From: a phage
Strand: one strand, 5' to 3'
DNA length: 64,000 nucleotides
NCBI GenBank assembly: GCA_020241865.1
Contig: GCA_020241865.1_4709.1
In this document: in pieces, positions 1 to 38,628 of the stretch
Layout: each line of letters begins with the position of its first letter
Position numbering within the stretch: position 1 is the first letter of the stretch
Position numbers and translations under genes: made by a program
The notes under the pieces: generated by a model
Databases searched by the model: none
What the model was told of the DNA's origin: nothing
The model's input: only the letters and a program-made list of their open reading frames with translations

Positions 1-1837
1 TCGAACCGAGACGAACGGCGATTTTATTTAGTGGTTTGATTGGGTCACTGTTGATTGTCTGGATAAAATGGATGGTGTAACTGCTCAATGTCTTAAGCAG
101 CTGCAGCATTCCGTATTGAATATCCTTAAGACTGGTGACATCTTCCAAATCCTGGCCGGTGGCCTTTGTGAAGATATCGAGAGCCAGAATACCCGCCTCT
201 TCTTGACTGATTGCGTCAAGCTCCCAATCCATCGATAAGAACCATTCCTTGTAAAGCTGTCCAATACCGAAGTCGACACCAACATCCATGTAGAAGTTTT
301 CAACGATTGCTTCAGCCATGCCTCGAGCTTGATAATGTTCTTGGAGCTGATACATGAACTGATGGCGACGCCAGCCCTGGTAAATCTCGGTAACGGCGCT
401 CAGAAACTCTTCAGTACTGACGACAGCACGCAGCGTCACTTGCTTATCCAAACACCACCAGATCAGTTTATCGGGAATGATAGCAGGATCGGTAATGCTA
501 CGGAGATGGTCGAATGTCGGTAGCGTTAACACCCTGACGTGGTTAGCATGGATCTTAGGTACTTCAATCAGCGTCATGCCCATCGAATAGTTCAGCAAAT
601 ACAAGAACAGCTTGTATGCATCTTTCATCGACATCGTCATGGTATCACCCGTCACCGGGTTGGTTGTCGTTAACCGTGACTGATACATGCCTATCGCGCT
701 AAGATGAATCCATTCGTTCAGCAGGAAATCATACTTAGGATACAGTTCACTGTCTGTAAGGTCTTCGGCTTCACTTTCCAACACCTTGGTCGTTAAGGTA
801 TTGTTGTCATGCATCGACATCTTCTCTATCGTGCGGTTAAGCTCGGTATAATACTCCGCTTCGTTATCCCGCGCTAAAGGGAACTGTTGCTGCATCACGG
901 TGGTGACCTTACGTCTTACCGTGCCATTACCGACGATCTCTTGAAGGTTAAGCGGTTTACGCTCCATGTAAACAGCAGGTTTTAACGTCTGGGGTATCTC
1001 GGAAGCGTCTTGTTTGATCGAGAACGCACCGATTGGAATTCCACGATCGGTTAATACCTTTTGAATGAGCTTATCGTAGTTTTCCGTTCTGCCCATGTTT
1101 CTTTCAACGTAAGCGATGTTACGATAGAACCAGAGCATTTGGGATTCGGTCATGTATCGCTTGAATCGATCGAGACCTTGATGGCTTGCCAGATAACTCC
1201 AGATATGGAAGCTATGGGCATAATGGGTATGACAGTTTTCCCAACGAATACCTTTTATCATCTCAGGTATTTGTGTGAATAGGATGGCGTATAGCGCAGG
1301 CCAATGAAGCATATCGACGCTCTCGTATGCCGGATGTTCCCAGCGTCTGAAGTAATCGTCGATTTCTTGCTGTAAACGTGGAATAAGATTGGCCTCGCGT
1401 GACTCAACCTCTTGTGTATCGTACCAGAGAATCTCATGATTGCGTGCCGCAATTGCTTTCTCGATATCGATGGGGTTAAGGATACCCAAGATCAACATAC
1501 GTTGTTCCGGGTACCGCGCAATTAAACGATTGAAATAATCTCCACCATACGCGTACTCCCTTGCCGTCATGCGATGCCGTAACATGTTTTCCTTAGTGAA
1601 CTCGATCTCTTCGAGCGTATCCAGGGAATTTACGGTCATCATTGTCTGACAAGGATGATACTCGCCAGCGAGATTCATGTAGTATAACCACGTGCGTGGG
1701 TCGTCCCCGACGGCCATCTGGTAGACTTCGGAAACCTTGAGGTTTAACCGTTCTGCCGTGATGTCGCTTTTAATAATCAGGGTGTCCGTTAGACGCTGCA
1801 CGCTTTCCGAATAAAGCTGATAGTCAGTGTTGGACAC
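1..1837 (-). CDS. hypothetical large protein, partial (3' part lies beyond window start; >600 codons in window)
   Basis: Stop-free minus-strand frame from 1837 down to position 1 (absent from ORF track because no stop inside window); GTG at 1837 with GGAGGA 6 nt upstream, alternative ATG at 1717; no P-loop or other motif recognised. Confidence 0.6.
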   Translation of the reverse strand, partial: MSNTDYQLYSESVQRLTDTLIIKSDITAERLNLKVSEVYQMAVGDDPRTWLYYMNLAGEYHPCQTMMTVNSLDTLEEIEFTKENMLRHRMTAREYAYGGDYFNRLIARYPEQRMLILGILNPIDIEKAIAARNHEILWYDTQEVESREANLIPRLQQEIDDYFRRWEHPAYESVDMLHWPALYAILFTQIPEMIKGIRWENCHTHYAHSFHIWSYLASHQGLDRFKRYMTESQMLWFYRNIAYVERNMGRTENYDKLIQKVLTDRGIPIGAFSIKQDASEIPQTLKPAVYMERKPLNLQEIVGNGTVRRKVTTVMQQQFPLARDNEAEYYTELNRTIEKMSMHDNNTLTTKVLESEAEDLTDSELYPKYDFLLNEWIHLSAIGMYQSRLTTTNPVTGDTMTMSMKDAYKLFLYLLNYSMGMTLIEVPKIHANHVRVLTLPTFDHLRSITDPAIIPDKLIWWCLDKQVTLRAVVSTEEFLSAVTEIYQGWRRHQFMYQLQEHYQARGMAEAIVENFYMDVGVDFGIGQLYKEWFLSMDWELDAISQEEAGILALDIFTKATGQDLEDVTSLKDIQYGMLQLLKTLSSYTIHFIQTINSDPIKPLNKIAVRLGS

Positions 1838-1864
1838 GATCGGTCCTCCAAGGAGCCAGTGTAA

Positions 1865-4774
1865 ATGAACGATATAAATAAAGGGCGCGTCGCCCTCGAA
1901 CGTCAAATGAGCAATAATGACGTTGCGAAGGCACTCATGAACAAATTTGTCGCTCCTGCTCCGCAGTCACGTCTTTATAATACACGTGATGCGGAAGGAG
2001 CGAACGGTCGTTTCGGGTTAGTTGTTCCCGACCAAATGACGATGAACACGGTTACGCGTGCGACCGCGACAAACATCGAGGATAATAAAAACATCCTCGA
2101 GCTGTTCCCTGAACTTAAACGCGTGATGCAGATCTATGTTGCCGCGTTGACGAACCCTAACGATCTTAAGACGGTCGAGATGTTTATCGACAGCGAAGAT
2201 TTCCCCGGCAGAGTCGCAGAAATCGTTCAGCCGATGATCGATACCATCGACACGCATTTTAAGAATATCTATAAAATAAAGACGCTTATCCCTCGTATCA
2301 TCGAAGACGTCTTCTTTATCAAGGGCAGTTATAACTTCGTTGTTCTGCCGGAAAGCACGCTCGACCGCGCCATTAATGGTAACGGTCAACTGAAACTTGA
2401 AGAATACGGATTTAAAGACAACCATTTTGCAAGTTGGGGGCTTCTAGGTAACGACAGTCGCAAACGCCACGAAAATCAATTACCTGCGACGGTTTCGATG
2501 GAAGATTATTTCTCGGGTGTTAATGAAACCATACCGTACGATCCTGTTGTTCGCATAGACAGCATCAAGTTTACCAATACCCTGCTTCGCGATAAGGACG
2601 GTAAATTCATTGAAGCGAAGATCGATATTCCGGATATGGTTACGGTTGTCGATAACCCAGACATCCTCCGCATGCCTATTCTGCATCAACGTCGAGCAGC
2701 GACAGCAGTGCAGCGTGCGTTACGCGCAAACACGTTAGGAGGTAGTGGTTTGGTAACGCTGTCAGGCGATCCGACCCTAACCGCTAACCGACGTGAGCTG
2801 TCGCAAGAACAGGTTAACGAGATCTGGAATAAGCTCAACATCCAGCGCCACACCAAGGTATCGCCCGTTTACGCGCTGGCAACCCCAGATACGCTTGATC
2901 GTCAAAGCGTTGGCCATCCTGGCGTGATGCATGTACCACCTGAGGCATTAGAACCCGTACATGCGCCCGGTGATCCTGAGAACCATATCGGGTATTTGGT
3001 TCAGTTGGATGAGTTTGGTTATCCAGTACGTTTGGTTGAAGATGCGGCGTATTACAAGCAGTTGGAAGGTCGGTTGTCGAAGATCACCGCAGATATCGCA
3101 GGTACGTCAAGCAACGGCATGGCGAGCGAGATGATTGGTGCAGCCAAGAACATGATCCAAGGTACGTCATGTAATCAGGTAGACATGTCGGCCTTCGTAT
3201 CATCGTACGAATCGCTGATGCAACGTTACATTGTCGAACGTATCGTTAACGGTTATCTTGGCAGTGCGGTGGAGATCGGTGCGACATCATCGTTTTATCT
3301 GTCGATGCTTGCTCGTAGCCTCGCTCACAAGCAGACCCGTGTTTTGTTTATTCCTCGAGAGATGGTGACTTACATCGCCTATGAATACAACAAATACGGT
3401 ATCGGTCGTTCGCTGCTTGAAAGTACGAAGATGATCTCATCGCAACGAGCCATGCTCATGGTTCAAGAACTGATGGCGAAAATCAAAAGTTCGTTGAACT
3501 ATACGACGCTAAGCGTAATGCTTGAAGACACCGACAGAAACCCGGTCGATACCGTCGAACAAGCACTGCATAGTTTCGCTCGTGTCTACCAGTCTGGTTT
3601 CCCGTTGGGTGAAACTAACCCGATGGATATCATCAACGCGTACGAACGAAGCTCGATTCGATTGAAGGTTGAGGGGAATAACCCACGCTTCCCGAAATTG
3701 AATACAGACGTCAGTGTTGAGCAGCGTAACTATCAGTCTCCTGATAATGAGCTGATGGATCGTTACCGTCGTGACCATTTCATGGGCTTGGGTGTGTCTC
3801 CGGAGATTATCGATACTTCCTACCAATCTGAATTCGCAGCTTCTGTGATTACAGCTAACGCGATGCAAGAGAAACAGTTCACGGTTTGTCGTGAGGTGAT
3901 CACGAATGGGTTATCGGACCACATCAAGAAATATACGGCATACAGTCCCGTGTTGTTGACGTCGTTACGAAACACGGTTCGTGCGAACATGTCTAAGCTT
4001 TCCCAGGCACAATTGAAGCAGCTTTTTGGTAGCGATTTCGAAAACGGTGTTATCCGTAACGTTAACGCCTATCAGGAGATTGACGACCAATCAGCAACAA
4101 TGGATCTGGATTACACTAAACCAGAAGTCCAGGAAGTTATTGCCGATGCTTATGTGTCCATGTTCTTAAACAGTCTGCGTGTGCGTTTACCGGATAGCAA
4201 TGCTCGTCGCCTTGAAGATCAGGTACGTGAATATAATCAGTACAAGGAAGCGATTACTGCGCAACTTGATGATTATTTAACGCCTGATTACGTCATGGGT
4301 CTGGGTGGGGTTGATGAAACAACGCTGCAGATGATCCGCGCATGCATTATTGGTACCGCGATGCGTACATGGGCAAAAGAGAATAACTTCAATCAGGAGC
4401 TGGCTGATCTCTTCAGTCTTGACGATAAGAAGAATGCCGTGCAAGATTGGAAACGTATGTCCATGGAACATATTGAAGTCATGGGTAAATGCATGGGTGA
4501 TTTTGCATTGTATATTCAGAATCTGACGAAGAAGATTGAAGAGAAGATGGGAGCTCAAGCACAGGACGGTAGCGTTTCATCTGATGGTTCGTGGTCATCC
4601 GATTCAAGTAGCGATACCGGTTCTTCTGATGACTTCGGTGGCGGTGACGATTTCGGAGATACCGATTTCGATACCGAAACGATGGAGGAAACCTCAACAG
4701 AAGAAACAACCACATCTGAGGAAACGACGACCGACACAACGTCAGAAGACGACACTTCAGGTGGCGTTGTCTAA
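1865..4774 (+). CDS. large hypothetical protein (969 aa) with acidic S/T/D/E-rich C-terminal tail; virion-protein candidate
   Basis: ORF track; ATG 1865 with AAGGAG about 9 nt upstream; only short antisense ORFs inside; C-terminal about 70 aa low complexity. Confidence 0.85.
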   Translation: MNDINKGRVALERQMSNNDVAKALMNKFVAPAPQSRLYNTRDAEGANGRFGLVVPDQMTMNTVTRATATNIEDNKNILELFPELKRVMQIYVAALTNPNDLKTVEMFIDSEDFPGRVAEIVQPMIDTIDTHFKNIYKIKTLIPRIIEDVFFIKGSYNFVVLPESTLDRAINGNGQLKLEEYGFKDNHFASWGLLGNDSRKRHENQLPATVSMEDYFSGVNETIPYDPVVRIDSIKFTNTLLRDKDGKFIEAKIDIPDMVTVVDNPDILRMPILHQRRAATAVQRALRANTLGGSGLVTLSGDPTLTANRRELSQEQVNEIWNKLNIQRHTKVSPVYALATPDTLDRQSVGHPGVMHVPPEALEPVHAPGDPENHIGYLVQLDEFGYPVRLVEDAAYYKQLEGRLSKITADIAGTSSNGMASEMIGAAKNMIQGTSCNQVDMSAFVSSYESLMQRYIVERIVNGYLGSAVEIGATSSFYLSMLARSLAHKQTRVLFIPREMVTYIAYEYNKYGIGRSLLESTKMISSQRAMLMVQELMAKIKSSLNYTTLSVMLEDTDRNPVDTVEQALHSFARVYQSGFPLGETNPMDIINAYERSSIRLKVEGNNPRFPKLNTDVSVEQRNYQSPDNELMDRYRRDHFMGLGVSPEIIDTSYQSEFAASVITANAMQEKQFTVCREVITNGLSDHIKKYTAYSPVLLTSLRNTVRANMSKLSQAQLKQLFGSDFENGVIRNVNAYQEIDDQSATMDLDYTKPEVQEVIADAYVSMFLNSLRVRLPDSNARRLEDQVREYNQYKEAITAQLDDYLTPDYVMGLGGVDETTLQMIRACIIGTAMRTWAKENNFNQELADLFSLDDKKNAVQDWKRMSMEHIEVMGKCMGDFALYIQNLTKKIEEKMGAQAQDGSVSSDGSWSSDSSSDTGSSDDFGGGDDFGDTDFDTETMEETSTEETTTSEETTTDTTSEDDTSGGVV

Positions 4775-4807
4775 ACGGATGTAAAAAAAAAAATAACACA
4801 TAGTTAA

Positions 4808-4842
4808 CCTTCTCCCCAACCCGATGAGGGAAGGGGAGAAGG
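4808..4842. terminator. GC-rich stem-loop CCTTCTCCCC/GGGGAGAAGG (family member) between convergent genes
   Basis: Perfect 10-bp inverted repeat around CCC-GATGA-GGG inner hairpin; A11 tract 4783-4793 just upstream. Confidence 0.6.
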
Positions 4843-4862
4843 GCTATGCGCTATTTAATTTA

Positions 4863-5135
4863 TTACGAGGTTAACCACGATTCAATTGTGGTGAGTTTGC
4901 TTCTCAGTACGCGCCAACTAGGGTGTGGTGGGATCACAGCGCCTTTGTCGATTACGGTTAGCTGAACCTGGTACTTCTGTTGCATACGCGCTACCGTGTC
5001 GCTTATCGAGAGGAAAAGCTGGTAACGTTCATATGCCGTCAGTTCACTGTCCTGTTGAACTGCGTTGGCCGCTAACGTAATTTCGCGTAAGTCCTTTGCA
5101 TCCACAGAGACGGTAATGAGTTTATATTGACTCAT
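4863..5135 (-). CDS. small hypothetical protein (90 aa)
   Basis: ORF track; ATG 5135 with AAGGA upstream; sits between stem-loop 4808-4842 and next gene. Confidence 0.6.
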   Translation of the reverse strand: MSQYKLITVSVDAKDLREITLAANAVQQDSELTAYERYQLFLSISDTVARMQQKYQVQLTVIDKGAVIPPHPSWRVLRSKLTTIESWLTS

Positions 5136-5196
5136 ACGGTTTCCTTATCAACTAGGGTATTGCAAATACAATACCCACCGTCGGACGATAAGTTAA

Positions 5197-7755
5197 TTAC
5201 TGCTCTTCACGTTCCAGCAGATACTCGGAAGCGGTAATACCGTTTACCGTACGTACTGCTTTCAGACGAGTATCATCGCTCAGAATTACAGTAACAGATT
5301 GCAGACCTTTTACTTTGGTTTCGAAGGTCTTGAACACCTGATCCAGCATACGAGCAATGCTTGGGTTGGTTGCAGCTGATGCGTGGGTGTAACCGCTTTG
5401 GTTCAGCTTCAGAATCTTGGCGTTGGTCGGTACGCGAACAACAACATGCGGACGCATCGCGAATACGCTGTGATTAAACCAGTAAGCATCGTTGCTATCT
5501 TCGTCGGTAACGATGTCTGGATTAACACGCATATCCTCGACAGCCGCATCCGCCAAACGACGTTCGATTTCGTCAGCATCCAGAGAGCCATCTTTCTCCA
5601 GTTCTGCACGATACTCACTCATGGCAACCAGATGACGTTCACGATTCGCTGCGGATTTTTCGTGAGCGGCTTTCAGGTAGTCATGCATGTTGTACAGTTC
5701 TGCCATGGAAAGACGAATGTTCCACTGACCTTCGCCGTCACGATTGCAGTAGAGACACTTCAGCATGTTGACCCAGGTATAGTAGCAATTGGAGAATTCA
5801 TCTTCAATGAACTTCTGGTCCATTTTAAGATCGTGAATCAGCCAACCGGACAGTTCTCCGATATCATCAACGAAGCTAGAGATGGTGGTTTCAGAGAAGT
5901 TCTTCGGTACGATACGTTTGATCAGCTTATTGACGTCTTTGGTCATGCTATCGTTCAGGAAATGCCAGATACGCAGAGGAATGACATCTCGATACTGTTG
6001 CATGATCTGACGATAAGCTTTGATATCGTCGCTACGACCTTTATCAATAGACAACGCATCCAGGAATTCATGGATTGCATCCAGCTCTTTGTCGGTATAG
6101 GTTCCCAGATAGGAATTGACCGTAGCCAGGAATGCTAATGCGTCGTTTTGGTTGACGTCGGTGTTGGTCTGCTGAATGATCGCTACTGAAGCTTTGGTTT
6201 CAGCATCCTCAACGCTTGACGCTGCGATCGCATCGGTGACGGTAAACAGTTTCATTTCGCGCTGCTCACCGACAACGATTGGCTCACGCTGAACCGGCTT
6301 GTTAAGACTAACGCGAACGACTTCTGCTTGCGCGATACGATCCAGTTTTGCCATTTCCTGCTCTGCCATACGACGAGCGGTTGGATCTGATTCAAGTTCG
6401 ATGTATTCCACTTCTTCCTCCGTGAGGGATGTAATGTCAACAATGGTTTCATGAAGAATTCCGTTTTCGTCGATACGTGCTCGACGAGCGAAGTGCCTGA
6501 AGTCATACAACGTCGGCCAACGACTATTAGGTGCGTAGTCTTTGGCTTTCAGACGCATCTGCATAAATTCTTCATGTTGAACAACACGACCGTAACGCTT
6601 AGCATCTTCGGTCGCATCAATTGGATTAACGGTCTTTGTTGCCGTAGCGGAACGAGCCGTACGAACCGGTTCCGGTTTCACCTGCGTCGGTTCAGGTTGA
6701 ACGGGTTTCTGCTGTCCAGCCTTAACATGCCATTCTGGCTCTTCGTACTGTTCAGCAAATTGCTCAGCCGCTGCAAAGATATCGTTGATACCACCAATAT
6801 CTCCTTCAGGATTTGTCGAGTAAATCCGTGGTTGTGGTGCCTCGTAACGCGGCGCTGTAGCAGCAGGTGCGTCATCAACGATAGGATCGTCATCACCAAC
6901 ATCATACAAACGGTTGAACGCACAATCCTTCGAATCAATGTACGATGGCGCTTGTGGTTGGACAACCGTCGGCCGAGGTTGTGCGCCGTATCCTGGTGTT
7001 GTTGGAGCCATGCCGCGCATAACTGCCGGACTAGGTTGGTATTGCGGTTGCGGATAGGTTCCACCATACATGGCGTACGCAGGCTGTTGTGGTTGACCAT
7101 ACCCGCTGCTAACCATCGCACTTGCTTGCGGCCCACGATAAGTCATCCCCATCTGCATCACCTGCTGCTTCAAACCACGTGACTTCTGAGCGATTTGCGC
7201 CAGACTCCCGCTTTTATTCAGCTGCGTGTACTTATTCGCGGCTTCCGGGTTAATGCGTGATAATTCAATCGCGCGATAATATTCCGGGTACTGATTCGGT
7301 TCAAAGAGCCACGTTACAAGATGATACAGCGCAACTGTACTCACGGCAGCAGAGACGATCTGGTCATCGGACGCGTTCTGTGGCATCGGGTTGATGTAAG
7401 AGAATACGTTCCAACAACAGTCTTCAACAAGCGATTCCATCATCATATCGTTATTGGTATAACGTGCGACGAACTCGGTTTGTATTTTGTCTTGCTGAGC
7501 GAAGTCTTTCAGGACATTAAAGATGGCTTGACGGATTTTGACGATCGTCGCTTCTTGGGTGATGAAGTTATAGTTCTGCTGATATGAGGGTTGTTGGTAT
7601 TGTGGTGGTTGATAGGCGTTATTCGGGTATGCGCCGTACGGCGATTGCTGATACTGTTGCTGGCGAACCTGTTCAGCCGCATAATTAACCGTGCTCGTAT
7701 AAGGGTTTTCGCTATAACCCATTTGTTGATACATGTTGTTACTGCCATTATACAT
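5197..7755 (-). CDS. hypothetical protein (852 aa) with Q/Y/P-rich low-complexity N-terminus and internal segment
   Basis: ORF track; ATG 7755 with AAAGGA upstream; long stop-free antisense frames suggest codon bias. Confidence 0.85.
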   Translation of the reverse strand: MYNGSNNMYQQMGYSENPYTSTVNYAAEQVRQQQYQQSPYGAYPNNAYQPPQYQQPSYQQNYNFITQEATIVKIRQAIFNVLKDFAQQDKIQTEFVARYTNNDMMMESLVEDCCWNVFSYINPMPQNASDDQIVSAAVSTVALYHLVTWLFEPNQYPEYYRAIELSRINPEAANKYTQLNKSGSLAQIAQKSRGLKQQVMQMGMTYRGPQASAMVSSGYGQPQQPAYAMYGGTYPQPQYQPSPAVMRGMAPTTPGYGAQPRPTVVQPQAPSYIDSKDCAFNRLYDVGDDDPIVDDAPAATAPRYEAPQPRIYSTNPEGDIGGINDIFAAAEQFAEQYEEPEWHVKAGQQKPVQPEPTQVKPEPVRTARSATATKTVNPIDATEDAKRYGRVVQHEEFMQMRLKAKDYAPNSRWPTLYDFRHFARRARIDENGILHETIVDITSLTEEEVEYIELESDPTARRMAEQEMAKLDRIAQAEVVRVSLNKPVQREPIVVGEQREMKLFTVTDAIAASSVEDAETKASVAIIQQTNTDVNQNDALAFLATVNSYLGTYTDKELDAIHEFLDALSIDKGRSDDIKAYRQIMQQYRDVIPLRIWHFLNDSMTKDVNKLIKRIVPKNFSETTISSFVDDIGELSGWLIHDLKMDQKFIEDEFSNCYYTWVNMLKCLYCNRDGEGQWNIRLSMAELYNMHDYLKAAHEKSAANRERHLVAMSEYRAELEKDGSLDADEIERRLADAAVEDMRVNPDIVTDEDSNDAYWFNHSVFAMRPHVVVRVPTNAKILKLNQSGYTHASAATNPSIARMLDQVFKTFETKVKGLQSVTVILSDDTRLKAVRTVNGITASEYLLEREEQ

Positions 7756-7789
7756 TTCTTACGATCCTTTTTATTTATTCGGTTATGTG

Positions 7790-9586
7790 TCAATCGATTA
7801 TGTCGTGATCGTTAATTTCTACAATTTCTTCATCGAATCGACCGACGTCTTTCTTCAAGCCTGCATTGGTTGCTGCAACGTCATTTGCAATTTGTGGGGT
7901 AATGATTAACCGACCGCGCTCATCGATAGGTGCGTACATACTGAACTTCTGACGTCCGGTTGGTTCGGAGTGTGGAAGATTCAGATAGCTTGCACAGAAC
8001 GGGATGGAACCACTAACCAAACGACTCTCGTCAGCCAATGCAGCACCGCCTGCGTTTTGGCTCTGGAGAACAACATGCGTGCTCACTTTGAACAGCATGC
8101 AATCACCCGGTGACTGAATCGATGTTGCCACTTTCTCACGTTTATCACGATTGCTCTGGATATTGAGAATCGCTTCCGTTGCAACTTGATTTCGCAACGC
8201 CTTCTGTACATCGCGATTGGTCATCTCTTTACGGTTGTTCTGTCGTTTACCACGTTCTGTGGTTTTAAGATGGAACCCCAGTTTAAAGATGCTCTTACGC
8301 ACATCCTCCATGACATATTCCAACACCATCAATTCCTTACCGAACATCGTCGTGGTATCAACACGACTCATTTCGATAGTAACATTGTCAATCAGATAGG
8401 CCATAAATTCATAGAAGTCGTCGCAAGGAATATTTTCCTGTTTGAACTTCTTCTGCTGAATTTCGTCAACGTAAAGATCGAGACTGTCGATGTGGTGGTT
8501 TACATCACGCAACAAACGCGCATCCGCATTGTTGTTATTAAAGATAATCAAACCGAGTAATGTACGCCAATGGTCTGGCGCATTCGCGAACTCTTCAACC
8601 GGATAGTCTTCCGGAAAACGATCGTAATAACGGTCGATGAGATACAAGAATGCACCGACAAGGCCAAGAACAATACGTTCCGTGCCTCCACGTCTTACTG
8701 CAATTTGAATATCAGGATGTTTGTAACGTACAGCGCTAGCGCTACGGCTTTTACCGCTTTTGCTGATACTAAAACCTTTAGGAATAACCCCCATGGTGCG
8801 ATAGATTACCCATTGGTCACGCGGAAAATCACGTTCAGCAAGGTTCCGTCCGGTTACGGCTTCGACACCTGCAAAACGTCGGAAACACTCACCCACCCCG
8901 TACTTCGCAAAGAGATAGTGACCCAGTGTGGTTACGCTGGTGTGGTTGATGTTGTCACCGTTCACTTTACTTTGTTTGGTAAGATGATAGATTTGTGACC
9001 AGGGTAATGACAGGTAATGACGATAATCGATACCGGTCGGTGTATCATTGCTCAGGAACTGATACGGTGTACGTTTAACCGTGATTTTGTCACGCGGAAG
9101 CATGATGAACGCCATGTCTTTCGTGTAACTGATTACCGGGTCAGCGAGCACTGCACTGAGAATGAAGTTCGCACCACGTAGACGCATTTTACCACCCTGA
9201 CCTACCGCGGGTAATAGGAGAGGATGTCGGATAATGCAGTAGTCCTTTCCGGGTTCACGACGGTCACCTGATTCCATCGCTCCGTACCAGCGGAATTCTA
9301 GCATCACCATAAACACATCGGATGGCGCAAGGTCGAAGGTCAGCTTACCGCTATCCTTCCCTTTGGTTTTCTTTCCTCCGCTTAAGTAGTGGAACTGTTC
9401 GCGGGCCATACAGCGACGCAGGCCATGATACACCAGATCCTTAGGTAAACTATCTTTGCTGTTCCGCCAAAGACGATCAACATAGGACTCAACATCTTGC
9501 ATCTTATCGACGACGATGTTGCGTGCTATCTTCTCGTTCATCTTCGGTGCAAGCCCAGCGACAGCTTTGCAGAATCTAGGATCCAT
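7790..9586 (-). CDS. hypothetical protein (about 598 aa)
   Basis: ORF track 7790-9589 starts at GTG; ATG at 9586 has AAAGGAG 6 nt upstream. Confidence 0.85.
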   Translation of the reverse strand: MDPRFCKAVAGLAPKMNEKIARNIVVDKMQDVESYVDRLWRNSKDSLPKDLVYHGLRRCMAREQFHYLSGGKKTKGKDSGKLTFDLAPSDVFMVMLEFRWYGAMESGDRREPGKDYCIIRHPLLLPAVGQGGKMRLRGANFILSAVLADPVISYTKDMAFIMLPRDKITVKRTPYQFLSNDTPTGIDYRHYLSLPWSQIYHLTKQSKVNGDNINHTSVTTLGHYLFAKYGVGECFRRFAGVEAVTGRNLAERDFPRDQWVIYRTMGVIPKGFSISKSGKSRSASAVRYKHPDIQIAVRRGGTERIVLGLVGAFLYLIDRYYDRFPEDYPVEEFANAPDHWRTLLGLIIFNNNNADARLLRDVNHHIDSLDLYVDEIQQKKFKQENIPCDDFYEFMAYLIDNVTIEMSRVDTTTMFGKELMVLEYVMEDVRKSIFKLGFHLKTTERGKRQNNRKEMTNRDVQKALRNQVATEAILNIQSNRDKREKVATSIQSPGDCMLFKVSTHVVLQSQNAGGAALADESRLVSGSIPFCASYLNLPHSEPTGRQKFSMYAPIDERGRLIITPQIANDVAATNAGLKKDVGRFDEEIVEINDHDIID

Positions 9587-9625
9587 CACACACTCCTTTC
9601 AGAAAGTTGCTTAAGCAGATTAAAG

Positions 9626-11062
9626 TTACTTTTTCGATGACGCTTTCTCAAGAATCTTGAAAAAGGTCATACCTATACCGACAACGGCCGCGGTTATGCT
9701 CGCAGCGGCTTTCCAAACATCGACGTTACGTTGACGTCGCGCTTCTTCCGCTTCACGTTGTCTTTTTGCCTCTTCATCACGTCGACGTATCTCAGCAGCA
9801 AACTCGTCGTGCTTACGTTTGGATTCTTCGTCTCGACGACGAAGTTCAGCGACGAATTCTTCATGTTTGCGTTTAGCCTCGTCATCACGACGTTTTAAAT
9901 CAGCTTGATAATCTTCGTGTATTTGTCTACGTAGATCATCTTGACGTTTCATTTCGGCTTGGTGTTGTTCCATCCTACGTTTTTGTTCGTCTTTAAGCTG
10001 ATCGAGTTCGGCTTTATGTTGTTCATCACGCAGCTTTGCGTCGGCGCGATGCGCCTCATGCATCTGTGCGATAACTGCCTTGTGTTCATCCGCCATACGT
10101 CGCATTTCAGCCATCACCCCTTTAAGGGTTTCTTCTGATGCCTTACGTTCGTAGCTACGTTGGTCGAAATCATTTTTGTAGGCTTCTTTTTGGATGGGGT
10201 CGCGCCAATGCAATGCCGATTCACGCGTCGGAAAAACATTGTACTTCCACATCTCTTTTTCCAAATCTTCGACCGGTACGAAGATGGAGTCATTATTCCC
10301 GAAGGTAACCAACATACCTGGCGCGCCTGCTCCATTCGTTGGTTTTATTTCGAACGCTTTCCCCAGCACGTTAACCCATAAGCTATACGGATTATGAAAG
10401 TCGGGCGGCGTCCAATGGATAGTGAGTTGCGTTCCGAGAATCCGGAAACCCTCTGTTTTTCCCGTCAAGCTCCGCGCGCACGTTGCGATGTAGGGGTGAT
10501 CAATCCCTTTCGTAACGTGGTCTGCGCTTTTGTATTCTCCTTTAACTTTTACGATTGCCACGTTGATTTGCGCGACATAAGCAGGTTGATTAAAGTTCAG
10601 CGTGTTGAGGTCAATTTGACATATTTCATCCAGCGTATCGTACCAGTCTTGCTGGTCTAATAGACGCGGCATTTTCTCTGTGTTAACAATACGACGGATA
10701 TGCGGTTTCCTTATCGCGTAACCTGTGCCGTTTTTAACACGGAGTATATCCCGACGTCTACCCGCGTAGACGAAGTTTCTGAATGCACCATTCGCATTAG
10801 ATACGTCATGGCTGTCAACTATTACAGGACTACGAAATTTTGAACGTCGTACGATCCTGAATGTATTGCCGTCCTCAACCCTACCAGGAATGTACTGGAA
10901 CATATTGTCGGAGGTGATAACCAACACGGTATGGCCAGATTCATTAATACATGCCCATCCTAATTCCAGGTCATATAACGGTTCAGCATAACCGTCAATG
11001 CGATAAGCGTGCGTACCATCCCACGGTTCGAACGCGGTATCACATATTGGCATGGAGGGCAT
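9626..11062 (-). CDS. tail-anchored membrane protein candidate: globular N-domain, charged repeat helix, C-terminal hydrophobic segment
   Basis: ORF track (track start 11068 is TTG; ATG 11062 has GGAGG 7 nt upstream); in-frame repeats RRRDEE-x-KRKH-x-EF; hydrophobic stretch AAASITAAVVGIGMTFF near C-terminus. Confidence 0.8.
   Translation of the reverse strand: MPSMPICDTAFEPWDGTHAYRIDGYAEPLYDLELGWACINESGHTVLVITSDNMFQYIPGRVEDGNTFRIVRRSKFRSPVIVDSHDVSNANGAFRNFVYAGRRRDILRVKNGTGYAIRKPHIRRIVNTEKMPRLLDQQDWYDTLDEICQIDLNTLNFNQPAYVAQINVAIVKVKGEYKSADHVTKGIDHPYIATCARSLTGKTEGFRILGTQLTIHWTPPDFHNPYSLWVNVLGKAFEIKPTNGAGAPGMLVTFGNNDSIFVPVEDLEKEMWKYNVFPTRESALHWRDPIQKEAYKNDFDQRSYERKASEETLKGVMAEMRRMADEHKAVIAQMHEAHRADAKLRDEQHKAELDQLKDEQKRRMEQHQAEMKRQDDLRRQIHEDYQADLKRRDDEAKRKHEEFVAELRRRDEESKRKHDEFAAEIRRRDEEAKRQREAEEARRQRNVDVWKAAASITAAVVGIGMTFFKILEKASSKK
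9775..9915 (-). repeat. in-frame tandem repeats inside CDS 9626-11062 encoding charged helix repeats
   Basis: Repeated DNA units visible at about 9780-9900 translating to KRRDDEAKRKHEEFVAELRRRDEESKRKHDEFAAEIRRRDEEAKRQ. Confidence 0.7.
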
Positions 11063-11211
11063 CGTCAACCTCCATCTGATTGAAAACTATCACGCATAAT
11101 ACATTTCCCTTTTCTTGTTCTTATCGAGCCGACAGCCGACGGTTTCAGCATCGTTCCTAGCGCGAGAACGACCTTACGTGTTGTCTATGCCTTATTCATC
11201 GCAGGCGTCTG

Positions 11212-11236
11212 TCACCTAGGTAATGTAAGCGTCAAA
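11212..11236 (-). promoter_or_regulatory. conserved promoter-like motif copy 3 (minus strand TACATTACCTAGGTGA)
   Basis: Shares CACCTAGGTAATGTA core with motifs at 19381-19416 and 57405-57437; lies in 330-bp intergenic region upstream of gene 9626-11062. Confidence 0.4.
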
Positions 11237-11270
11237 TTTTTTCTATTCGCAACAATAAACGGCATAGAAA

Positions 11271-11300
11271 CCTCCCCCAACCCTTACGGGCTGAGGGAGG
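11271..11300 (-). terminator. GC-rich stem-loop, family member in inverted orientation (CCTCCC...GGGAGG around CCC-TTAC-GGG)
   Basis: Inverted repeat read from sequence; downstream of stop of gene 11400-13622 on minus strand. Confidence 0.5.
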
Positions 11301-11399
11301 CTGACTTATGTATCACGGTGCCGGATGAATGTCCGGTGCAATGAAACCATCCGCAACGTTGTCGTCAAGAATATCGTCCAACGAAGCAGCTACGGTAGT

Positions 11400-13622: not shown

Positions 13623-13771
13623 TGAAAGTATCCTTTACAGAATTAACTTATATAAGTCGGTCGATAGACCATAGCGTACACGCGTGCATGCGCCACTATA
13701 GTATCAGTAAACACTTACCGTTATTGAGGTCGTGATACAACACTAAAAATGCCGCATAACTTTTCCCTACG

Positions 13772-14392
13772 TCATAAACGACGCAGGCGATAATGGATGG
13801 AACGATTGGTGCAATATGAACGGAACAGCGGCAATTGCGCAACTTCCGCAAGACTCATATTAATTCGCAGGTGTTCAATAACGGCGCTGTAGTTATCAGC
13901 AATACGATCGCTCAATAACTCTTCTGCCAATAAAGGAAGACAATCGACAACAATCGCGATCACATCCTCATTAACATAACGCACCCGAACACTCAACGGA
14001 CGTTTGTCTGGGCTGTAAGTTGGATCCGCCAAACGACGTTCAATATCACGCGGATAGCTCGTCAGTAAATGGTAATAACCATTGTCATAACGATTGATGT
14101 ACTCACACAGCACATCAACATTCTTCTCTGGCGGCAAACCTGTTTCGTCATAGTGATACGCAAACATACCACCAAGCAGGTTGTTAAGATGAACCGCAGG
14201 GTTCGTTTGTTCGTGTTCTTTCGTGATGAAGAAAGGCACGTTCTGGGCTGCGAAATAAAAACCTACATCATTGGGCGATAGTATGCCGAAAAGACTTTTA
14301 GGGTCTAATAACACCTGTAAGTCATCACGCGCATTTCGAATAATCGCGTGTTCTACCCAATTCGGAACGACGAGATATCGGAGTTCCTTCAT
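13772..14392 (-). CDS. hypothetical protein (206 aa)
   Basis: ORF track; ATG 14392 with AGAGG upstream; divergent from 14432 gene. Confidence 0.75.
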   Translation of the reverse strand: MKELRYLVVPNWVEHAIIRNARDDLQVLLDPKSLFGILSPNDVGFYFAAQNVPFFITKEHEQTNPAVHLNNLLGGMFAYHYDETGLPPEKNVDVLCEYINRYDNGYYHLLTSYPRDIERRLADPTYSPDKRPLSVRVRYVNEDVIAIVVDCLPLLAEELLSDRIADNYSAVIEHLRINMSLAEVAQLPLFRSYCTNRSIHYRLRRL

Positions 14393-14431
14393 TATGATTA
14401 CCTCTTTGCAAGTATCGAAAGGATTGAGTCG

Positions 14432-16042
14432 ATGGACCCAAAACAGATAGCCATTAAGATTATTACGTTACTGTTTCGTAATGCACAATTGAACCATCCC
14501 GATCCCAGTACGATCGAACATGTTAAATCCGTCTTAGATAAAGTCGAACCCCCGAAAAACCATCTCGCTACAGACGTAGATAGAGAGGTTTTCAACAACC
14601 TGATGAATACCATTCATTGGATGTTGGAACAACCATTATCGGAACCTTTCGATAAACAACAGTTGTTACAAAGGATACGTTTGGATTGCCTTGAACAAAG
14701 CAATCTTTACGAGATTCTTGCCGACGGACTGTACGATATCGAAGACGACGCTCATATCAGTAAGGTCTGTTCACTCTATTACAACGAATTACGTAATCTG
14801 ATTACCCGTCGTCGTGTTTTCGAAACCTTTAGAAACACGTACATGGATATCAGTAACGGGCGACTTGGGGATAAAGAATTTTTCGATGCAATGGCGAATC
14901 TGAAATTATCGCTAGACAGTATCGAAATGGATACCGAAAATCCCGAAGAGATGTCGTGTATGATTGACGGCTTTATCGCTGACAGCGAAGACGATATCGA
15001 GAAAGTCGAACGTATGTTCGTCAAAGCGATGGAACGTAACAGTCCTGAAGGTGGATTTGTAACCGGCTGGCAAGGCTTTAATAAAATGTTGGGGTCGGTC
15101 GGTGTTTTACGTCGCGGTACCTTAGGACTGATTGGTGCAATGCAGCACCGGAACAAGTCAGGCGTGTTGTTAAAACTGTTCACACATCTGGCATTGTACA
15201 ACAAACCCCATTTCTTTTTCCCGGAGCGAGCAAAGAAAGCATTACTGATTCATTTGTCGACAGAAAACGAAGTGGAAGAAAACACGCTTCAGATATACAA
15301 GAACATGCGAGAACAGGAAACAGGCGAATATGTCGATATTCGTAAGATTGACCCTCGCGAGGCATCACGTTATGTGTTGAAGGTGTTCAACGATGCGGGT
15401 TTCTCTGTTTGTATGCGTCGTGTTGATGGGATGAGTTATAAACAACTCGCTAATCTCATCGACCATTTCGAACGCATGGGTTATGAAGTCATGGCGTTGT
15501 TCATTGACTATCTGAAAATGTTCTCATCGGAAGGGCTGGATAGAAATGGACCGACCGGCGCATGGCTCCAAGAACTCTTCAACAAAGTCCGTAACCTCTG
15601 CAGTGTTAAACGTATTTTAGGCATGACCGTACACCAGCTGTCATCCGATGCGAAGATGCGTGCACGTGATGGCAACGATGAAGAGTTTGTTGACCAAGTC
15701 GCAGGTTTAAGTTACTGGGATGGTTGTAAAGGGATTGACCGTGAGATTGACCTTGAAGTGATTGTTGATATCGTTAAGGAACCGGGCAAACGTCAAAGCT
15801 GGCAAGTCTTTGCATTAGGGAAAGACCGTCAACCGGATAACGGTTCAACGAAACCTGAAGACAAACACTTCGCAATGCCATTCCAAACCATCGGGATGCT
15901 TCCTGATGATTACGGTAAGAAAGCAGTGTATTGCCGCAAGGTTGGCGGACAACCTGTCTCCGAGGGAGGTAAAGGTCCGTGGAACAAGTTCGATGAAAAC
16001 GCAGCACCGAGTAATGAATTACAATTTGATTTAGAATTTTAA
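14432..16042 (+). CDS. DnaB-family helicase homolog candidate with atypical P-loop (537 aa)
   Basis: Track start 14348 would overlap the divergent gene; ATG 14432 has AAAGGA 8 nt upstream. Motifs by eye: GAMQHRNKSG (Walker A with Asn in place of the second Gly), KPHFFFPERAKKALLIHLS, LFIDYLKM (Walker B/H2-like), VHQLSSD (H3-like), in DnaB-like order and spacing. Confidence 0.75.
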   Translation: MDPKQIAIKIITLLFRNAQLNHPDPSTIEHVKSVLDKVEPPKNHLATDVDREVFNNLMNTIHWMLEQPLSEPFDKQQLLQRIRLDCLEQSNLYEILADGLYDIEDDAHISKVCSLYYNELRNLITRRRVFETFRNTYMDISNGRLGDKEFFDAMANLKLSLDSIEMDTENPEEMSCMIDGFIADSEDDIEKVERMFVKAMERNSPEGGFVTGWQGFNKMLGSVGVLRRGTLGLIGAMQHRNKSGVLLKLFTHLALYNKPHFFFPERAKKALLIHLSTENEVEENTLQIYKNMREQETGEYVDIRKIDPREASRYVLKVFNDAGFSVCMRRVDGMSYKQLANLIDHFERMGYEVMALFIDYLKMFSSEGLDRNGPTGAWLQELFNKVRNLCSVKRILGMTVHQLSSDAKMRARDGNDEEFVDQVAGLSYWDGCKGIDREIDLEVIVDIVKEPGKRQSWQVFALGKDRQPDNGSTKPEDKHFAMPFQTIGMLPDDYGKKAVYCRKVGGQPVSEGGKGPWNKFDENAAPSNELQFDLEF

Positions 16043-16063
16043 ACGCAAAAAAAAAAAGATTGT

Positions 16064-16112
16064 GCGGTTCCCTCCTCCAACCCGTAAGGGAAGGAGGAGG
16101 GGTTATGACCGC
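16064..16112. terminator. GC-rich stem-loop CCCTCCTCC-AA-CCC-GTAA-GGG-AA-GGAGGAGGG with extended flanking stem GCGGT/ACCGC, between convergent genes
   Basis: Perfect inverted repeat; A11 tract 16047-16057 gives a U-tract after the hairpin for minus-strand transcripts. Confidence 0.65.
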
Positions 16113-16117
16113 TTTGA

Positions 16118-16444
16118 TTAACTTATTGTCATGAATTCATTAGGTGAAAATTTCCAGCCGTTCTCGGTGAGAAGCGTGTTGAGTTTCGCTGCAACGATAA
16201 GCCATGCGTGCATGGCTGTTACATCGTATTGGCGATTCACTCGACGTTGGTTTTCGATATTGATTTGCTCCTGTTCAGTGATGTTTGGATAAAGTGCGAT
16301 AGCGCTAGGTTTACCCAGCGCGCTAGTCATCACCGCCGTACATTCACTGATAATGTTGTTTAAGTGGTAGTTATACACCGTTCCACGCATGACGCGATGA
16401 CGGCATTCGATAATAGCGTCGTAAATGATTTCTCGAGTAATCAT
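16118..16444 (-). CDS. hypothetical protein (108 aa)
   Basis: ORF track; no clear SD, possibly coupled to upstream gene. Confidence 0.6.
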   Translation of the reverse strand: MITREIIYDAIIECRHRVMRGTVYNYHLNNIISECTAVMTSALGKPSAIALYPNITEQEQINIENQRRVNRQYDVTAMHAWLIVAAKLNTLLTENGWKFSPNEFMTIS

Positions 16445-16450
16445 GATAAT

Positions 16451-16852
16451 TTAAAACATACGGTCGTTTTTAGCACGGGCGTCCATTACCAGATCGTAGA
16501 TGCCTGCGGTTCGTAAGCACTCTTCGTAGTAACGATGTGTGCCTTCCTCAGCCATCCACGATAACCCTCGGCTATCCGCAACGATAACCAGTTTGTTATT
16601 GTTGAACGCACACACCACACGGTATGTCGCGTTGTTATTCGGATCGCGAGTGATGAGTTCATAGACGCCGTTAACAGGTTTACTGAATTCGCCGTTTAAC
16701 GGAACGAGTTCGGTAGTACCTTCAGCAAACGTTACGTTGATCGGTGATGGATCTTTAGCGATAACAGTATATTCCACATTGTGTTCTTTACTGGTCATAA
16801 TACCGAAGTAAGAACTCACAGGGGAACGCGGTACACTAAGAATATTAAACAT
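16451..16852 (-). CDS. hypothetical protein (133 aa)
   Basis: ORF track; ATG 16852 with AGAGGA upstream. Confidence 0.7.
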   Translation of the reverse strand: MFNILSVPRSPVSSYFGIMTSKEHNVEYTVIAKDPSPINVTFAEGTTELVPLNGEFSKPVNGVYELITRDPNNNATYRVVCAFNNNKLVIVADSRGLSWMAEEGTHRYYEECLRTAGIYDLVMDARAKNDRMF

Positions 16853-16922
16853 AAATGTTGTCCTCTTAATTGGATTTAGATTGTTGGGTATGTGATTGGG
16901 AAATGAAAACGTTGTTTCGGTT

Positions 16923-17492: not shown

Positions 17493-17567
17493 CGTTTTTA
17501 CCTTTCTATGTTAGGTGGATTGCGGATAGAAGAATCAATGCATAGACTGATTTAAGTTTGTTAAGGT

Positions 17568-18470: not shown

Positions 18471-18517
18471 GTTGAGCTCCTTGATTACGATAAGGATGAT
18501 TGCGGTTTTGTGATGCT

Positions 18518-18546: not shown

Positions 18547-18555
18547 AATATTGGG

Positions 18556-19329: not shown

Positions 19330-19380
19330 GTTTGTATCCTCGGCTATTAAGAGAAATTTACAGTGATAACAGTAACCGTT

Positions 19381-36281: not shown

Positions 36282-37388
36282 TTAACGAATCTGTGGGACG
36301 TTTCCGGTACGGAGCGCCTGGAGGATCGTCAGGAGATCGGAACCCGAGGTTGACGAACTGTTGGATTTTTCCAGCTGCTTGAAGCTTACGGTGGTCCCTT
36401 GATCCAAGCTGTGGAAATAGAAGGTCACCATCTCTTCAGCTTCGTCGATGATGATCAACTGCATTGCGAGGGCTTCAGCCATGACTTTCTGACGTGTGGT
36501 ATAATCAGATAAACGACGTCCGATCTTACGCTCGATGGCTTCCTGGTTAGCCTTAGAGATGATATAGGTGGAGGCGATGGCTCCAGAAGAAGGGATCTTT
36601 GTGCTCGCTGCAGCTTTTGCGGCATTGATGCGCGCAGCATTAACAGCCTTACGGATACCCTCTTTATCCATGCGTGAGATTCGTTTGTGTTCGCGAACCA
36701 GATCGCTAAGCAGGATCATATCGCTCCAGAAAGACAGCTCACCGGCCATCATGCGATGCCAACGTGCTCGCCAGGTGTTCTGTGGGCCGCCAATCGCTAA
36801 AATCGACGCAAGCACTTCCGCTGGAGAGCTTGCAATACGCATGCTGATGTTCAACGGCATTTTCATCGTTGCCTGACCATCGGTCAGCGTCACGGTTAAG
36901 AACTTGCCGGTGACCGCGTTTGCATCTTTGTTCAGCAATTCGATCGCCGCGTCGCTGGCTCCAACATCGAGGCTATTTTTTTGTTTCCCCTGTAGGTTGA
37001 ATCCTTTGTCATCAAGGAAAACAAGGCTTTTGCTATCCGCACTTTCCAGCGCTAATTTAACGGCCTTATCCATCAGGTTAGCGTTACGGTTTGGGTTCAC
37101 ACGACCCAGCGTTTTATCGACACTGATGTTACCCACCTGCATGATGGTATTCAACGCCAGTAAATAGAACCCGGTATACATGTTTTCAGCGGTGCGCATG
37201 CAGTTGCCTAACGCATTGCGTGCGTCGCTATAATACAACTCACGTTCAAAGATCAACGGCGCGATAACGCGTGAAGGTTGTGAGAGTTCAACCAGCGAAC
37301 CTGGCTGGATAAGTTTATTAACTTCGTAGACTTTAGCGATACCTGACGCAACAACATTAACAGCGTCGGCAATTTCTGATGCTACCAT
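36282..37388 (-). CDS. hypothetical protein (368 aa)
   Basis: ORF track; ATG 37388 with AAGGA upstream. Confidence 0.8.
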   Translation of the reverse strand: MVASEIADAVNVVASGIAKVYEVNKLIQPGSLVELSQPSRVIAPLIFERELYYSDARNALGNCMRTAENMYTGFYLLALNTIMQVGNISVDKTLGRVNPNRNANLMDKAVKLALESADSKSLVFLDDKGFNLQGKQKNSLDVGASDAAIELLNKDANAVTGKFLTVTLTDGQATMKMPLNISMRIASSPAEVLASILAIGGPQNTWRARWHRMMAGELSFWSDMILLSDLVREHKRISRMDKEGIRKAVNAARINAAKAAASTKIPSSGAIASTYIISKANQEAIERKIGRRLSDYTTRQKVMAEALAMQLIIIDEAEEMVTFYFHSLDQGTTVSFKQLEKSNSSSTSGSDLLTILQALRTGNVPQIR

Positions 37389-37422
37389 ATTGAAATCCTT
37401 ATTTACAAATAAAGGAAAGAAA

Positions 37423-38628
37423 ATGTCTAATTACTACGACCAAGCTATTCAAACCATTCAGGAGAATAATGCGTCGTTAACACCCGAAGCTGTGGAGGCA
37501 GCGGGCAATGCGGTGTTATTCACTGATTCGGATTGGGCAATAGCGCGGAAGAATATTCGTACCAGTGTCGGTCAAGGGACATACGAGGACAGTATCGCCA
37601 GACGGTATCGGAATGTGTCGCCTATTCCTGGTAACAGCCCGATCCCGATTAACCGCGATCATGCCGGTATTACCTTCTTCACACGACCTAATTTACATCT
37701 TACCGACGCGAACTTAAAACGAGATCGACGTTTGTGGTCGTTACGTACGGATAACCCTAACAGTATTCAGGCTGTTGTCCGTGACTACTTGGACCCTGTG
37801 GGTGCCAGAAAGCGGAACCATCGAGGACGTGCCATCGTCGATGAGCGCAATCCATTCATAAGTATACTGACGGACAACCTGACGGATATCAGCGGTTTCA
37901 ATGACATGGAAATGCAGGTCTATCAGGGTAAACCGGGATTACGCCAAGAAACCGTTGTGATGGCTGACGGTTCAGTGGATATGTTCCAGCCTTATAACCT
38001 GAACGCGACGTTCAAGAACATCATGGGTAACCCCATCATGTTCCTTCATTATATTTGGTTGATTTACATCGCAGGCGTGCATAATGGTGAACTGACGCCA
38101 AGCCCTCAGGCCATCATCGACAATGAAATGGATTACTGGACAAGATGCTATCGTATCATCCTGGATCCGACTGGGATGTATGTTCGTTATATCTTCGCAC
38201 CGACCGCGATGTTTCCTGTCGGGTTACCGATTGGTAATATGGCTAACTACAGCATCGATAAACCCTTCACGCAAGATAACGAACGTATCACTATCCCATA
38301 CCAAGCGGTTGGTAACAACGCATTCGATGAAATTCTGAAGGATGAATTCAATCGCCTTGTCCTGATGTTCTATTACGGTGAGAACGATACCCGTACGTTC
38401 CTTGAAGATGAGGAGTTGGTACCTATCTCACCCTACGAGCGTCGAATCATGTCGTATCGTGTCGATATGTATCCATTTATTCATCCGTTGACCTCAGAGC
38501 TTCTTTGGTTCGTACCCGCTGATGATTACAACGAATTCTATCTGGATCTTGAGCCGTCGGCGTTACCACCGGATACGTTCAGTCGCGATCTTGTCCGTAC
38601 CACCATTCCGCAAAATTACGAGGGATAA
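37423..38628 (+). CDS. hypothetical protein (about 401 aa)
   Basis: Track start 37390 is TTG lying 1 nt from the divergent gene start; ATG 37423 has AAGGA 7 nt upstream. Confidence 0.8.
   Translation: MSNYYDQAIQTIQENNASLTPEAVEAAGNAVLFTDSDWAIARKNIRTSVGQGTYEDSIARRYRNVSPIPGNSPIPINRDHAGITFFTRPNLHLTDANLKRDRRLWSLRTDNPNSIQAVVRDYLDPVGARKRNHRGRAIVDERNPFISILTDNLTDISGFNDMEMQVYQGKPGLRQETVVMADGSVDMFQPYNLNATFKNIMGNPIMFLHYIWLIYIAGVHNGELTPSPQAIIDNEMDYWTRCYRIILDPTGMYVRYIFAPTAMFPVGLPIGNMANYSIDKPFTQDNERITIPYQAVGNNAFDEILKDEFNRLVLMFYYGENDTRTFLEDEELVPISPYERRIMSYRVDMYPFIHPLTSELLWFVPADDYNEFYLDLEPSALPPDTFSRDLVRTTIPQNYEG

Follow-up and report, generated by a model that had tools for sequence, protein, structure and literature searches.

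The sequence analysed, termed the window, is a stretch of 64,000 nt of phage contig GCA_020241865.1_4709.1. It belongs to a Goslar-like chimallivirus (Goslarvirus, Chimalliviridae). Its first 12 kb are 98.4% identical to Escherichia phage vB_EcoM_Goslar, and blastn showed the whole window to be collinear with Goslar 32041-93296, save for four larger indels and short unaligned stretches. Goslar was the only nucleotide-level relative in the phage collection, and viral contigs yielded only near-identical copies. Genome GCA_902731065.1, the portal protein of which shares 68% amino-acid identity with that of the window, is referred to as the 68% relative.

Several segments differ between the window and Goslar. 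A 1.77-kb insertion at 17552-19324 (82 nt in Goslar) carries two minus-strand ORFs (17568-18548 and 18556-19542; 326 and 328 aa) that gave no Pfam match, and an early-promoter-like site is located just upstream of them at ~19400. The gp064 homologue contains an 823-nt insertion (43305-44127), and its ORF (41688-45281) comprises 1197 aa compared to 930 aa in Goslar. At 53054-54720, approximately 1.67 kb with three small minus-strand ORFs take the place of 55 nt of Goslar; the flanking region 52549-55138 is the most divergent part of the window (79-82% identity). At 51631-51652, a 1.78-kb insertion of Goslar (81183-82966, with the NUMOD1/HNH endonuclease gene gp069 adjoining the DNA polymerase gene) is absent from the window, and the polymerase ORF (50138-51889) is longer than Goslar gp068 (583 versus 499 aa).

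Three divergent gene pairs of the window are separated by very short gaps, designated J1, J2 and J3 (Table 1). The roles of the gene products as upper baseplate wedge (gp35), portal (gp36), vertex-binding protein homologous to phiKZ gp119 (gp42), abundant injected head protein (gp61) and tail-tube initiator (gp62) were taken from the Goslar cryoEM preprint. By these gene identities, the junctions bound core structural and replication gene blocks.

Table 1. Junctions, genes and candidate signals (window coordinates unless stated otherwise).
Feature	Position	Strand	Remarks
J1 gap, 27 nt	1838..1864		minus-strand start GTG (cac, 1835-1837); plus-strand ATG at 1865
J2 gap, 39 nt	14393..14431		minus-strand start CAT 14390-14392; plus-strand ATG at 14432
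J3 gap, 34 nt	37389..37422		minus-strand start CAT 37386-37388; plus-strand ATG at 37423
gp035 homologue, upper baseplate wedge, phiKZ gp128-like	1..1837	-	GTG start 1835-1837; ORF continues beyond window edge
gp036 homologue, portal protein, phiKZ gp129-like	1865..4774	+	
gp042 homologue, capsid vertex-binding protein, phiKZ gp119-like	13772..14392	-	
gp043 homologue, divergent DnaB-like helicase	14432..16042	+	Pfam PF20307
gp061 homologue, abundant injected head protein, phiKZ gp89-like	36282..37388	-	
gp062 homologue, tail-tube initiator, phiKZ gp88-like	37423..38628	+	Pfam PF23971
phiKZ gp123 homologue, beta-like subunit of non-virion RNA polymerase (nvRNAP)	7790..9589	-	PDB 7OGP chain E, E=2.9e-40
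Chimallin (nuclear shell protein) gene	171003-172898 (Goslar annotation)		outside the window
ATTTTATA (ATNNTATR), candidate wedge-operon promoter	2270..2277	-	antisense in portal ORF, 433 nt upstream of gp035 start
ATAGTATG (ATNNTATR), candidate helicase-gene promoter	14278..14285	+	antisense in gp042, 147 nt upstream of DnaB-like ATG
TATC at P119L-equivalent site	14446..14449	-	54 nt upstream of gp042 ATG, DnaB-like codons 5-6; same in Goslar; TATG in 68% relative
ATGATATA (ATNNTATR), candidate gp062 promoter	36559..36566	+	antisense in gp061, 857 nt upstream of gp062 ATG
Conserved TATG (GTATACNTATGAA), weak candidate	37857..37860	-	two rare ATA codons of gp062; 469 nt upstream of gp061 start
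Conserved plain TATG	1228-1231	+	634 nt from portal ATG
ATACTATA (ATNNTATR), reference intergenic example	13697..13704	-	75 nt upstream of major capsid gene; block conserved in 68% relative
ATNNTATR copies 1-6	2270-2277(-), 4507-4514(+), 13697-13704(-), 14278-14285(+), 28303-28310(-), 34868-34875(-)		
ATNNTATR copies 7-11	36559-36566(+), 43249-43256(+), 50090-50097(+), 51089-51096(-), 53142-53149(+)		
Terminator-like hairpin GAGGGCGACGCGCCCTT with tail TATTTATATCG	1868..1897	-	portal codons 2-11, 31-60 nt upstream of gp035 start
Early (virion RNAP-type) promoter TTTGACGCTTACATTACCTAGGTGA	11212..11236	-	conserved in 68% relative
Two further early-promoter copies	~19400 and 57421	-	
GC hairpin + TTATGCYGT terminators	11258-11304, 24736-24775	-	many more in Goslar intergenic regions

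Start-codon distances of 27, 39 and 34 nt had been noted in a first-pass annotation of the window. They are exact; all three gaps are base-for-base the same in Goslar, and the starts match those of RefSeq NC_048170 (gp035/gp036, 27 nt; gp042/gp043, 39 nt; gp061/gp062, 34 nt). Among the 20 divergent junctions of Goslar, four are shorter than 40 nt (27, 31, 34 and 39 nt), two measure 54 and 64 nt, and fourteen range from 96 to 254 nt. The 31-nt junction (Goslar 155766-155796) falls outside the window and separates gp171, an RNA polymerase beta-subunit gene, from gp172, a baseplate-wedge gene.

At J1, TCCTCCAAGGAG (1844-1855) consists of TCCTCC (1844-1849), the complement of the Shine-Dalgarno sequence (SD) of the minus-strand gene, directly abutting AAGGAG (1850-1855), the SD of the portal gene. 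At J2, the SD complement ACCTCT (14400-14405) is followed by the SD AAAGGA (14418-14423), and at J3, TCCTT (37396-37400) and AAGGA (37412-37416) are separated by 11 nt. The back-to-back arrangement described in the first-pass annotation was thus found; the J3 spacer, given there as 12 nt, had to be corrected by one nucleotide. The mirrored SDs arise because two ribosome-binding sites are packed into 27-39 nt, and are a geometric consequence of compaction. Hairpins formed across the junctions by SD and anti-SD were no more stable than those of shuffled sequences (z-scores -0.2 to +0.5).

The same junctions were located in other members of the family. The wedge/portal gap (J1) measures 27 nt in the window, 27 nt in the 68% relative, 35 nt in phiKZ, 35 nt in 201phi2-1, 32 nt in Desertfox, 56 nt in Ralstonia phage FLC4-11C and 26 nt in Aeromonas phage pAEv1810. 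For the gp89-like/gp88-like gap (J3), the values are 34 nt (window), 30 nt (68% relative), 30 nt (L024), 39 nt (phiKZ), 28 nt (PCH45), 25 nt (SPAsTU) and 53 nt (Ea35-70). The gp119-like/DnaB-like gap (J2) was counted only in the ten genomes with firm starts. It is compact in six of them (window, 39 nt; 68% relative, 36 nt; Ea35-70, 28 nt; Eowyn, 32 nt; Aphrodite1, 45 nt; Yaphecito, 54 nt) and long in the other four (SURPRISE13, 97 nt; 201phi2-1, 128 nt; phiKZ, 211 nt; FLC1-1B, 221 nt). Nearly all compact cases share one layout: start-codon complement, short spacer, anti-SD, a few bases, SD, spacer and ATG. J1, J2 and J3 are ancient boundaries between oppositely oriented blocks, namely wedge and portal, gp119-like plus capsid and DnaB-like helicase, and gp89-like and gp88-like genes; the conservation of these RBS-to-RBS junctions is ancient and beyond chance. 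Among the papers searched, none was found to comment on these junctions. Two annotations of homologous junctions appear to be wrong. In Erwinia phage PhiEaH1 (2225-2328) the divergent genes overlap by 104 nt, and in Proteus phage 7 (1501-1603) the helicase start is placed 102 nt downstream of the onset of the tblastn alignment.

Goslar belongs to the Chimalliviridae and is a jumbo phage that forms a nucleus; members of the family carry two multisubunit RNA polymerases. The family model phage phiKZ develops insensitive to rifampicin, on its own RNA polymerases and without the host enzyme. The phiKZ gp123 homologue in the window indicates that this phage, too, supplies its own transcription machinery, and by family knowledge a Goslar-like phage would not depend on the sigma-70 RNA polymerase of its host. 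The second annotated RNA polymerase subunit gene (58781-60082) had no PDB or Pfam match, and a Pfam search of the two annotated polymerase genes detected no RNA polymerase domains.

De novo k-mer analysis of the intergenic DNA of Goslar recovered two known chimallivirus signals, the early promoter and the terminator. The early promoter, ttTCACGgcTA[TC]ATTACcTa.GTGA, occurs in 13 copies in Goslar, all on the minus strand; one is located upstream of the chimallin gene and three fall in the window. Early promoters of the phiKZ type (AT-rich consensus around TATATTAC) were absent at or beside J1, J2 and J3. The terminator, a GC hairpin followed by TTATGCYGT, is the motif described for phiKZ (GC hairpin, then TTATKYYGT). 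Clear copies follow, for example, the capsid gene, and none is present in the compact gaps. An enrichment of TTATGC that was considered as a promoter signal was assigned to this terminator module. The TATG within TTATGCYGT coincides with the core of phiKZ late promoters, and a few copies of the module lie in divergent regions, ahead of the gene that opens a strand block, where no terminator is needed. In the coding sequence of Goslar, TATG occurs 1.57 times per kb in antisense and 3.30 times per kb in sense orientation; codon usage, or selection against unwanted antisense initiation, might account for this rarity.

Published phiKZ late promoters are characterized by a bare T(-3)ATG(+1), i.e., the 4-nt sequence TATG ending at the start site, and in vitro any change of it strongly lowered transcription. 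The late promoter P119L, which has been defined biochemically and structurally, is recognised by the nvRNAP. Its G+1 is positioned 47 nt upstream of the ATG of gene 119. Goslar gp042 corresponds to this downstream gene and has the same divergent partner, the DnaB-like helicase; P119L lies in the 211-nt intergenic gap of phiKZ, whereas in the phages with compact junctions the equivalent position is within the helicase ORF. Six of 11 genomes carry TATG upstream of the gp119-like start, at a distance of 31-62 nt. In this zone, which was picked after inspection of the data, it ranked first among the 256 4-mers (binomial P=1.3e-4; 4.8e-3 without the two Pseudomonas phages). Three compact genomes have it within the first DnaB-like codons, at 51 nt (68% relative), 49 nt (Ea35-70) and 62 nt (Eowyn). 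The window and Goslar carry TATC instead of TATG at this site, which weakens the case for a promoter there in this phage. An ATTACC resembling the phiKZ middle promoter was noticed at J2 and rejected; it is explained by the SD of the minus-strand gene, and transcription would start too near to the ATG.

On the opposite strand of J2, the candidate site ATAGTATG results from GGC-ATA-CTA, codons that belong to the conserved SILS motif of gp042. Its TATG (14282-14285) lies within 16 consecutive nucleotides that the 68% relative shares without change. The isoleucine of SILS is encoded by ATA in all six lineages that possess the motif, and ATA makes up only 10% of the isoleucine codons of Goslar. 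Retention of this codon creates GATARTATR on the antisense strand of these lineages; Proteus phage 7 departs from it in the GATA portion.

The pattern ATNNTATR was derived within this analysis, prompted by the antisense GATARTATR of gp042; its spacing does not agree with that of phiKZ P119L. On both strands of Goslar, 44 copies were counted against about 200 expected from an order-3 Markov model, an approximately five-fold under-representation. ATC.TATR, ATA.TATR, ATG.TATR and ATT.TATR occupied the first four ranks for under-representation among 4061 comparable patterns, and ATA.TAT[CT] was not depleted in Goslar. Intergenic DNA, which accounts for 7% of the Goslar genome, holds 17 of the 44 copies, and 15 of these are located 34-169 nt upstream of a gene start, including those of the capsid, the DNA polymerase and several helicase and structural genes. 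Of the 15 copies antisense within ORFs, ten are followed within 1.5 kb by a gene start on the same strand, typically across a divergent junction (background 22%, P=2.4e-4). Where regions of the window are covered by the 68% relative, five of six copies are conserved at the orthologous position. Like the TATG of phiKZ late promoters, the pattern ends in TAT plus a purine; unlike P119L, it has AT at -7/-6. ATNNTATR is probably a promoter core of the phage polymerase, and it offers a concrete candidate for the poorly defined middle/late promoter of the Goslar lineage. A further-reaching version, in which it would be the core promoter of the nvRNAP in this lineage, purged from the genome for its potency and written antisense into neighbouring ORFs by means of rare codons (ATA), with long, mutually complementary 5' regions and a family-wide coupling of the paired genes, is regarded as doubtful.

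Other patterns were dropped as core elements: GTATGA was not depleted, and a bipartite TTAC-N4-ACTATA box found upstream of the capsid and gp030 genes had just two intergenic copies. Plain TATG was weakly enriched 21-60 nt upstream of genes, with uninformative flanks; in the family as a whole, the 260 nt to either side of J1 lack it, and it is rare around J3. The four compact junctions of Goslar shared only AT-rich, TTTAT-like strings. Upstream of the capsid gene, on the minus strand at 13626-13771, perfectly conserved blocks relative to the 68% relative include the palindromes ACTATAGT and CTTATATAAG and the block GCACGCGTGTAC, and exceed what a minimal promoter needs.

Candidates at the other two junctions are more distant from the genes. 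ATTTTATA is embedded in a 20-nt block that is identical, and at equal distance, in the 68% relative, and ATGATATA in a 17-nt block (GAGATGATATAGGTGGA), also identical there. The assignment of ATGATATA to gp062 is uncertain because of the long leader of 857 nt; the leader from ATTTTATA would also be long (433 nt), and either site may instead act in antisense RNA synthesis or have another role. No ATNNTATR was found upstream in the opposing gene for the portal gene, gp042 or gp061, and these three genes are without a convincing promoter candidate in the window. Part of the sequence conservation may be due to constraint at the protein level.

Taken together, it is considered fairly likely that minimal promoters of the phage polymerases are embedded in the opposing ORFs and that the divergent transcription units overlap at their 5' ends. 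The DNA between the starts has been reduced to two back-to-back ribosome-binding sites, which would be tolerated since the phage is transcribed by its own multisubunit RNA polymerases, and the coding sequence across the junction could accommodate the tiny TATG-like signals. Transcripts in either direction would initiate within the neighbouring ORF and carry a leader complementary to the beginning of the opposite gene. Putative promoters of this kind would be 14278-14285 (+) for the helicase gene, 14449-14446 (-) for gp042, 2277-2270 (-) for the wedge operon and 36559-36566 (+) for gp062. The gaps hold just two ribosome-binding sites probably because the phage has its own RNA polymerases with promoters so small that they are able to sit in a neighbouring gene. 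The first-pass annotation had offered promoters in upstream coding sequence and very short promoters of the phage type as alternatives. Both seem to be combined here, as suggested indirectly by TATG at the P119L position in relatives, the conserved ATA codon and ATNNTATR upstream of gp035, gp043 and gp062; the interpretation is partly supported, given the portal gene, gp042 and gp061, and a TATG within a gap occurs only at J2, where it is not conserved.

Start signals inside the gaps themselves were weighed as an alternative, in the form of a minimal, possibly bidirectional signal of the phage polymerase with leaders of approximately 15-35 nt that barely include the SD. The TATG at 14393-14396 in J2 would give a leader of 36 nt, the J3 gaps of phiKZ and Ea35-70 contain TATG at 23 and 39 nt from the gp88-like start, respectively, and Yaphecito has TATG within its 54-nt J2 gap. 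In Goslar, the 54-nt junction gp189/gp188 contains GATAGTATG at 34 nt from a start. However, the J2 gap is the only one of the three with a TATG, and the site reads TTACGT in the 68% relative; the J1 and J3 gaps of the window are devoid of TATG and ATNNTATR on both strands, except for the start codon of gp061 itself. Comparison of the gaps to the 68% relative revealed mainly the SDs to be kept; J1 and J2 additionally retain the bases from the SD of the plus-strand gene to its ATG. Outside the SDs, the J3 gap is not conserved. Promoters within the gaps are accordingly judged unlikely.

As a further alternative, the genes might have no dedicated promoters nearby and be expressed from long read-through or antisense transcripts that originate kilobases upstream, with hairpin terminators setting the level. 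Most phiKZ genes have been reported to be read in several overlapping transcription units, with terminators in 5' UTRs. In the window, no TATG was found within 500 nt of J1 on either strand, and a terminator-like hairpin is situated 44-60 nt upstream of gp035 within the portal ORF. This hairpin (1897-1881, portal codons 6-11) was the first-listed terminator-like match in 1-20000 and fits the phiKZ-type module loosely. It represents a weak minus-strand version of that module just upstream of J1, and differs from the phiKZ motif in its location inside the portal ORF, in ending in TTATATCG and in the loss of the stem in the 68% relative; it was rejected as a conserved terminator, as the stem is not maintained there. 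The plus-strand genes, moreover, form isolated islands, with the next plus-strand gene about 20 kb upstream of gp062 and about 6 kb upstream of the portal gene. Annotated terminators intervene, and convergent junctions are equipped with strong bidirectional hairpin-TTATGC terminators. Expression by read-through is thus given a small probability, and embedded promoters remain the preferred explanation.

Errors of annotation, with one start of each pair placed wrongly and true spacers long enough for ordinary promoters, are highly improbable. Such errors might be suspected from the GTG start of gp035, from an annotated N-terminus of gp043 that is 22 residues longer than that of phiKZ gp118, and from the inconsistent relatives, with the overlap in PhiEaH1 and the late start in Proteus phage 7. 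Against this, the alignment of gp035 with phiKZ gp128 begins at residue 1, residue 5 is the first one modelled in the cryoEM structure of Goslar gp36, the portal, and several DnaB-like homologues align from query residue 1. All six starts are preceded by a strong SD at 6-9 nt, sequence conservation with the 68% relative sets in exactly at every annotated start codon, and the SD, ATG and first codons of gp043 form a 26-nt block identical in that genome. Reassignment of start codons, which the first-pass annotation had named as a possible refutation, is contradicted by the N-termini of homologues, the portal structure and the onset of conservation.

Transcription by the host sigma-70 RNA polymerase from conventional promoters hidden in the flanking ORFs is scarcely credible: the one weak match (9/12; 14418-14391, minus strand) has its -10 element on the start codon of gp042, sigma-70-like matches number about half of those in dinucleotide shuffles (16 versus 28.8±5.8 in 1-20000; 10 versus 20.4±4.5 in 30000-45000), and both the rifampicin-insensitive development of phiKZ on its own polymerases and the nvRNAP subunit gene of the window speak against it. 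The earlier argument that divergent sigma-70 promoters cannot fit into gaps of 27-39 nt is correct in its logic, but its premise is moot for a chimallivirus with its own RNA polymerase. No pair of -35/-10 elements in both directions is present in the gaps, and the single match overlaps a start codon.

The compact junctions are an ordinary, predictable consequence of known chimallivirus transcription and not a new kind of system. They show to what extent genes can be packed once a virus is free of host promoters, with only two ribosome-binding sites left between divergent core genes, an arrangement inherited from the ancestor shared by phiKZ-like and Goslar-like phages. At such places, annotated coding sequence probably doubles as promoter, which matters for recoding and engineering of such phages and for knock-downs aimed at 5' ends.

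Among the closest known counterparts are the junctions gp128/gp129 (35 nt) and gp88/gp89 (39 nt) of phiKZ and their equivalents in 201phi2-1, Agricanvirus, Seoulvirus and PCH45. These are orthologous pairs, likewise divergent at 25-56 nt with anti-SD and SD back to back; apart from the SDs, their sequences are unlike those of the window.

In bacteria, overlapping divergent transcription units of the 'excludon' type are characterized by long antisense 5' UTRs. Should promoters indeed be embedded in the ORFs, the two divergent mRNAs would here, too, be complementary to each other in their 5' parts. In contrast to excludons, the overlap would be a by-product of compaction, and the phage transcribes its genes in the phage nucleus, separate from translation.
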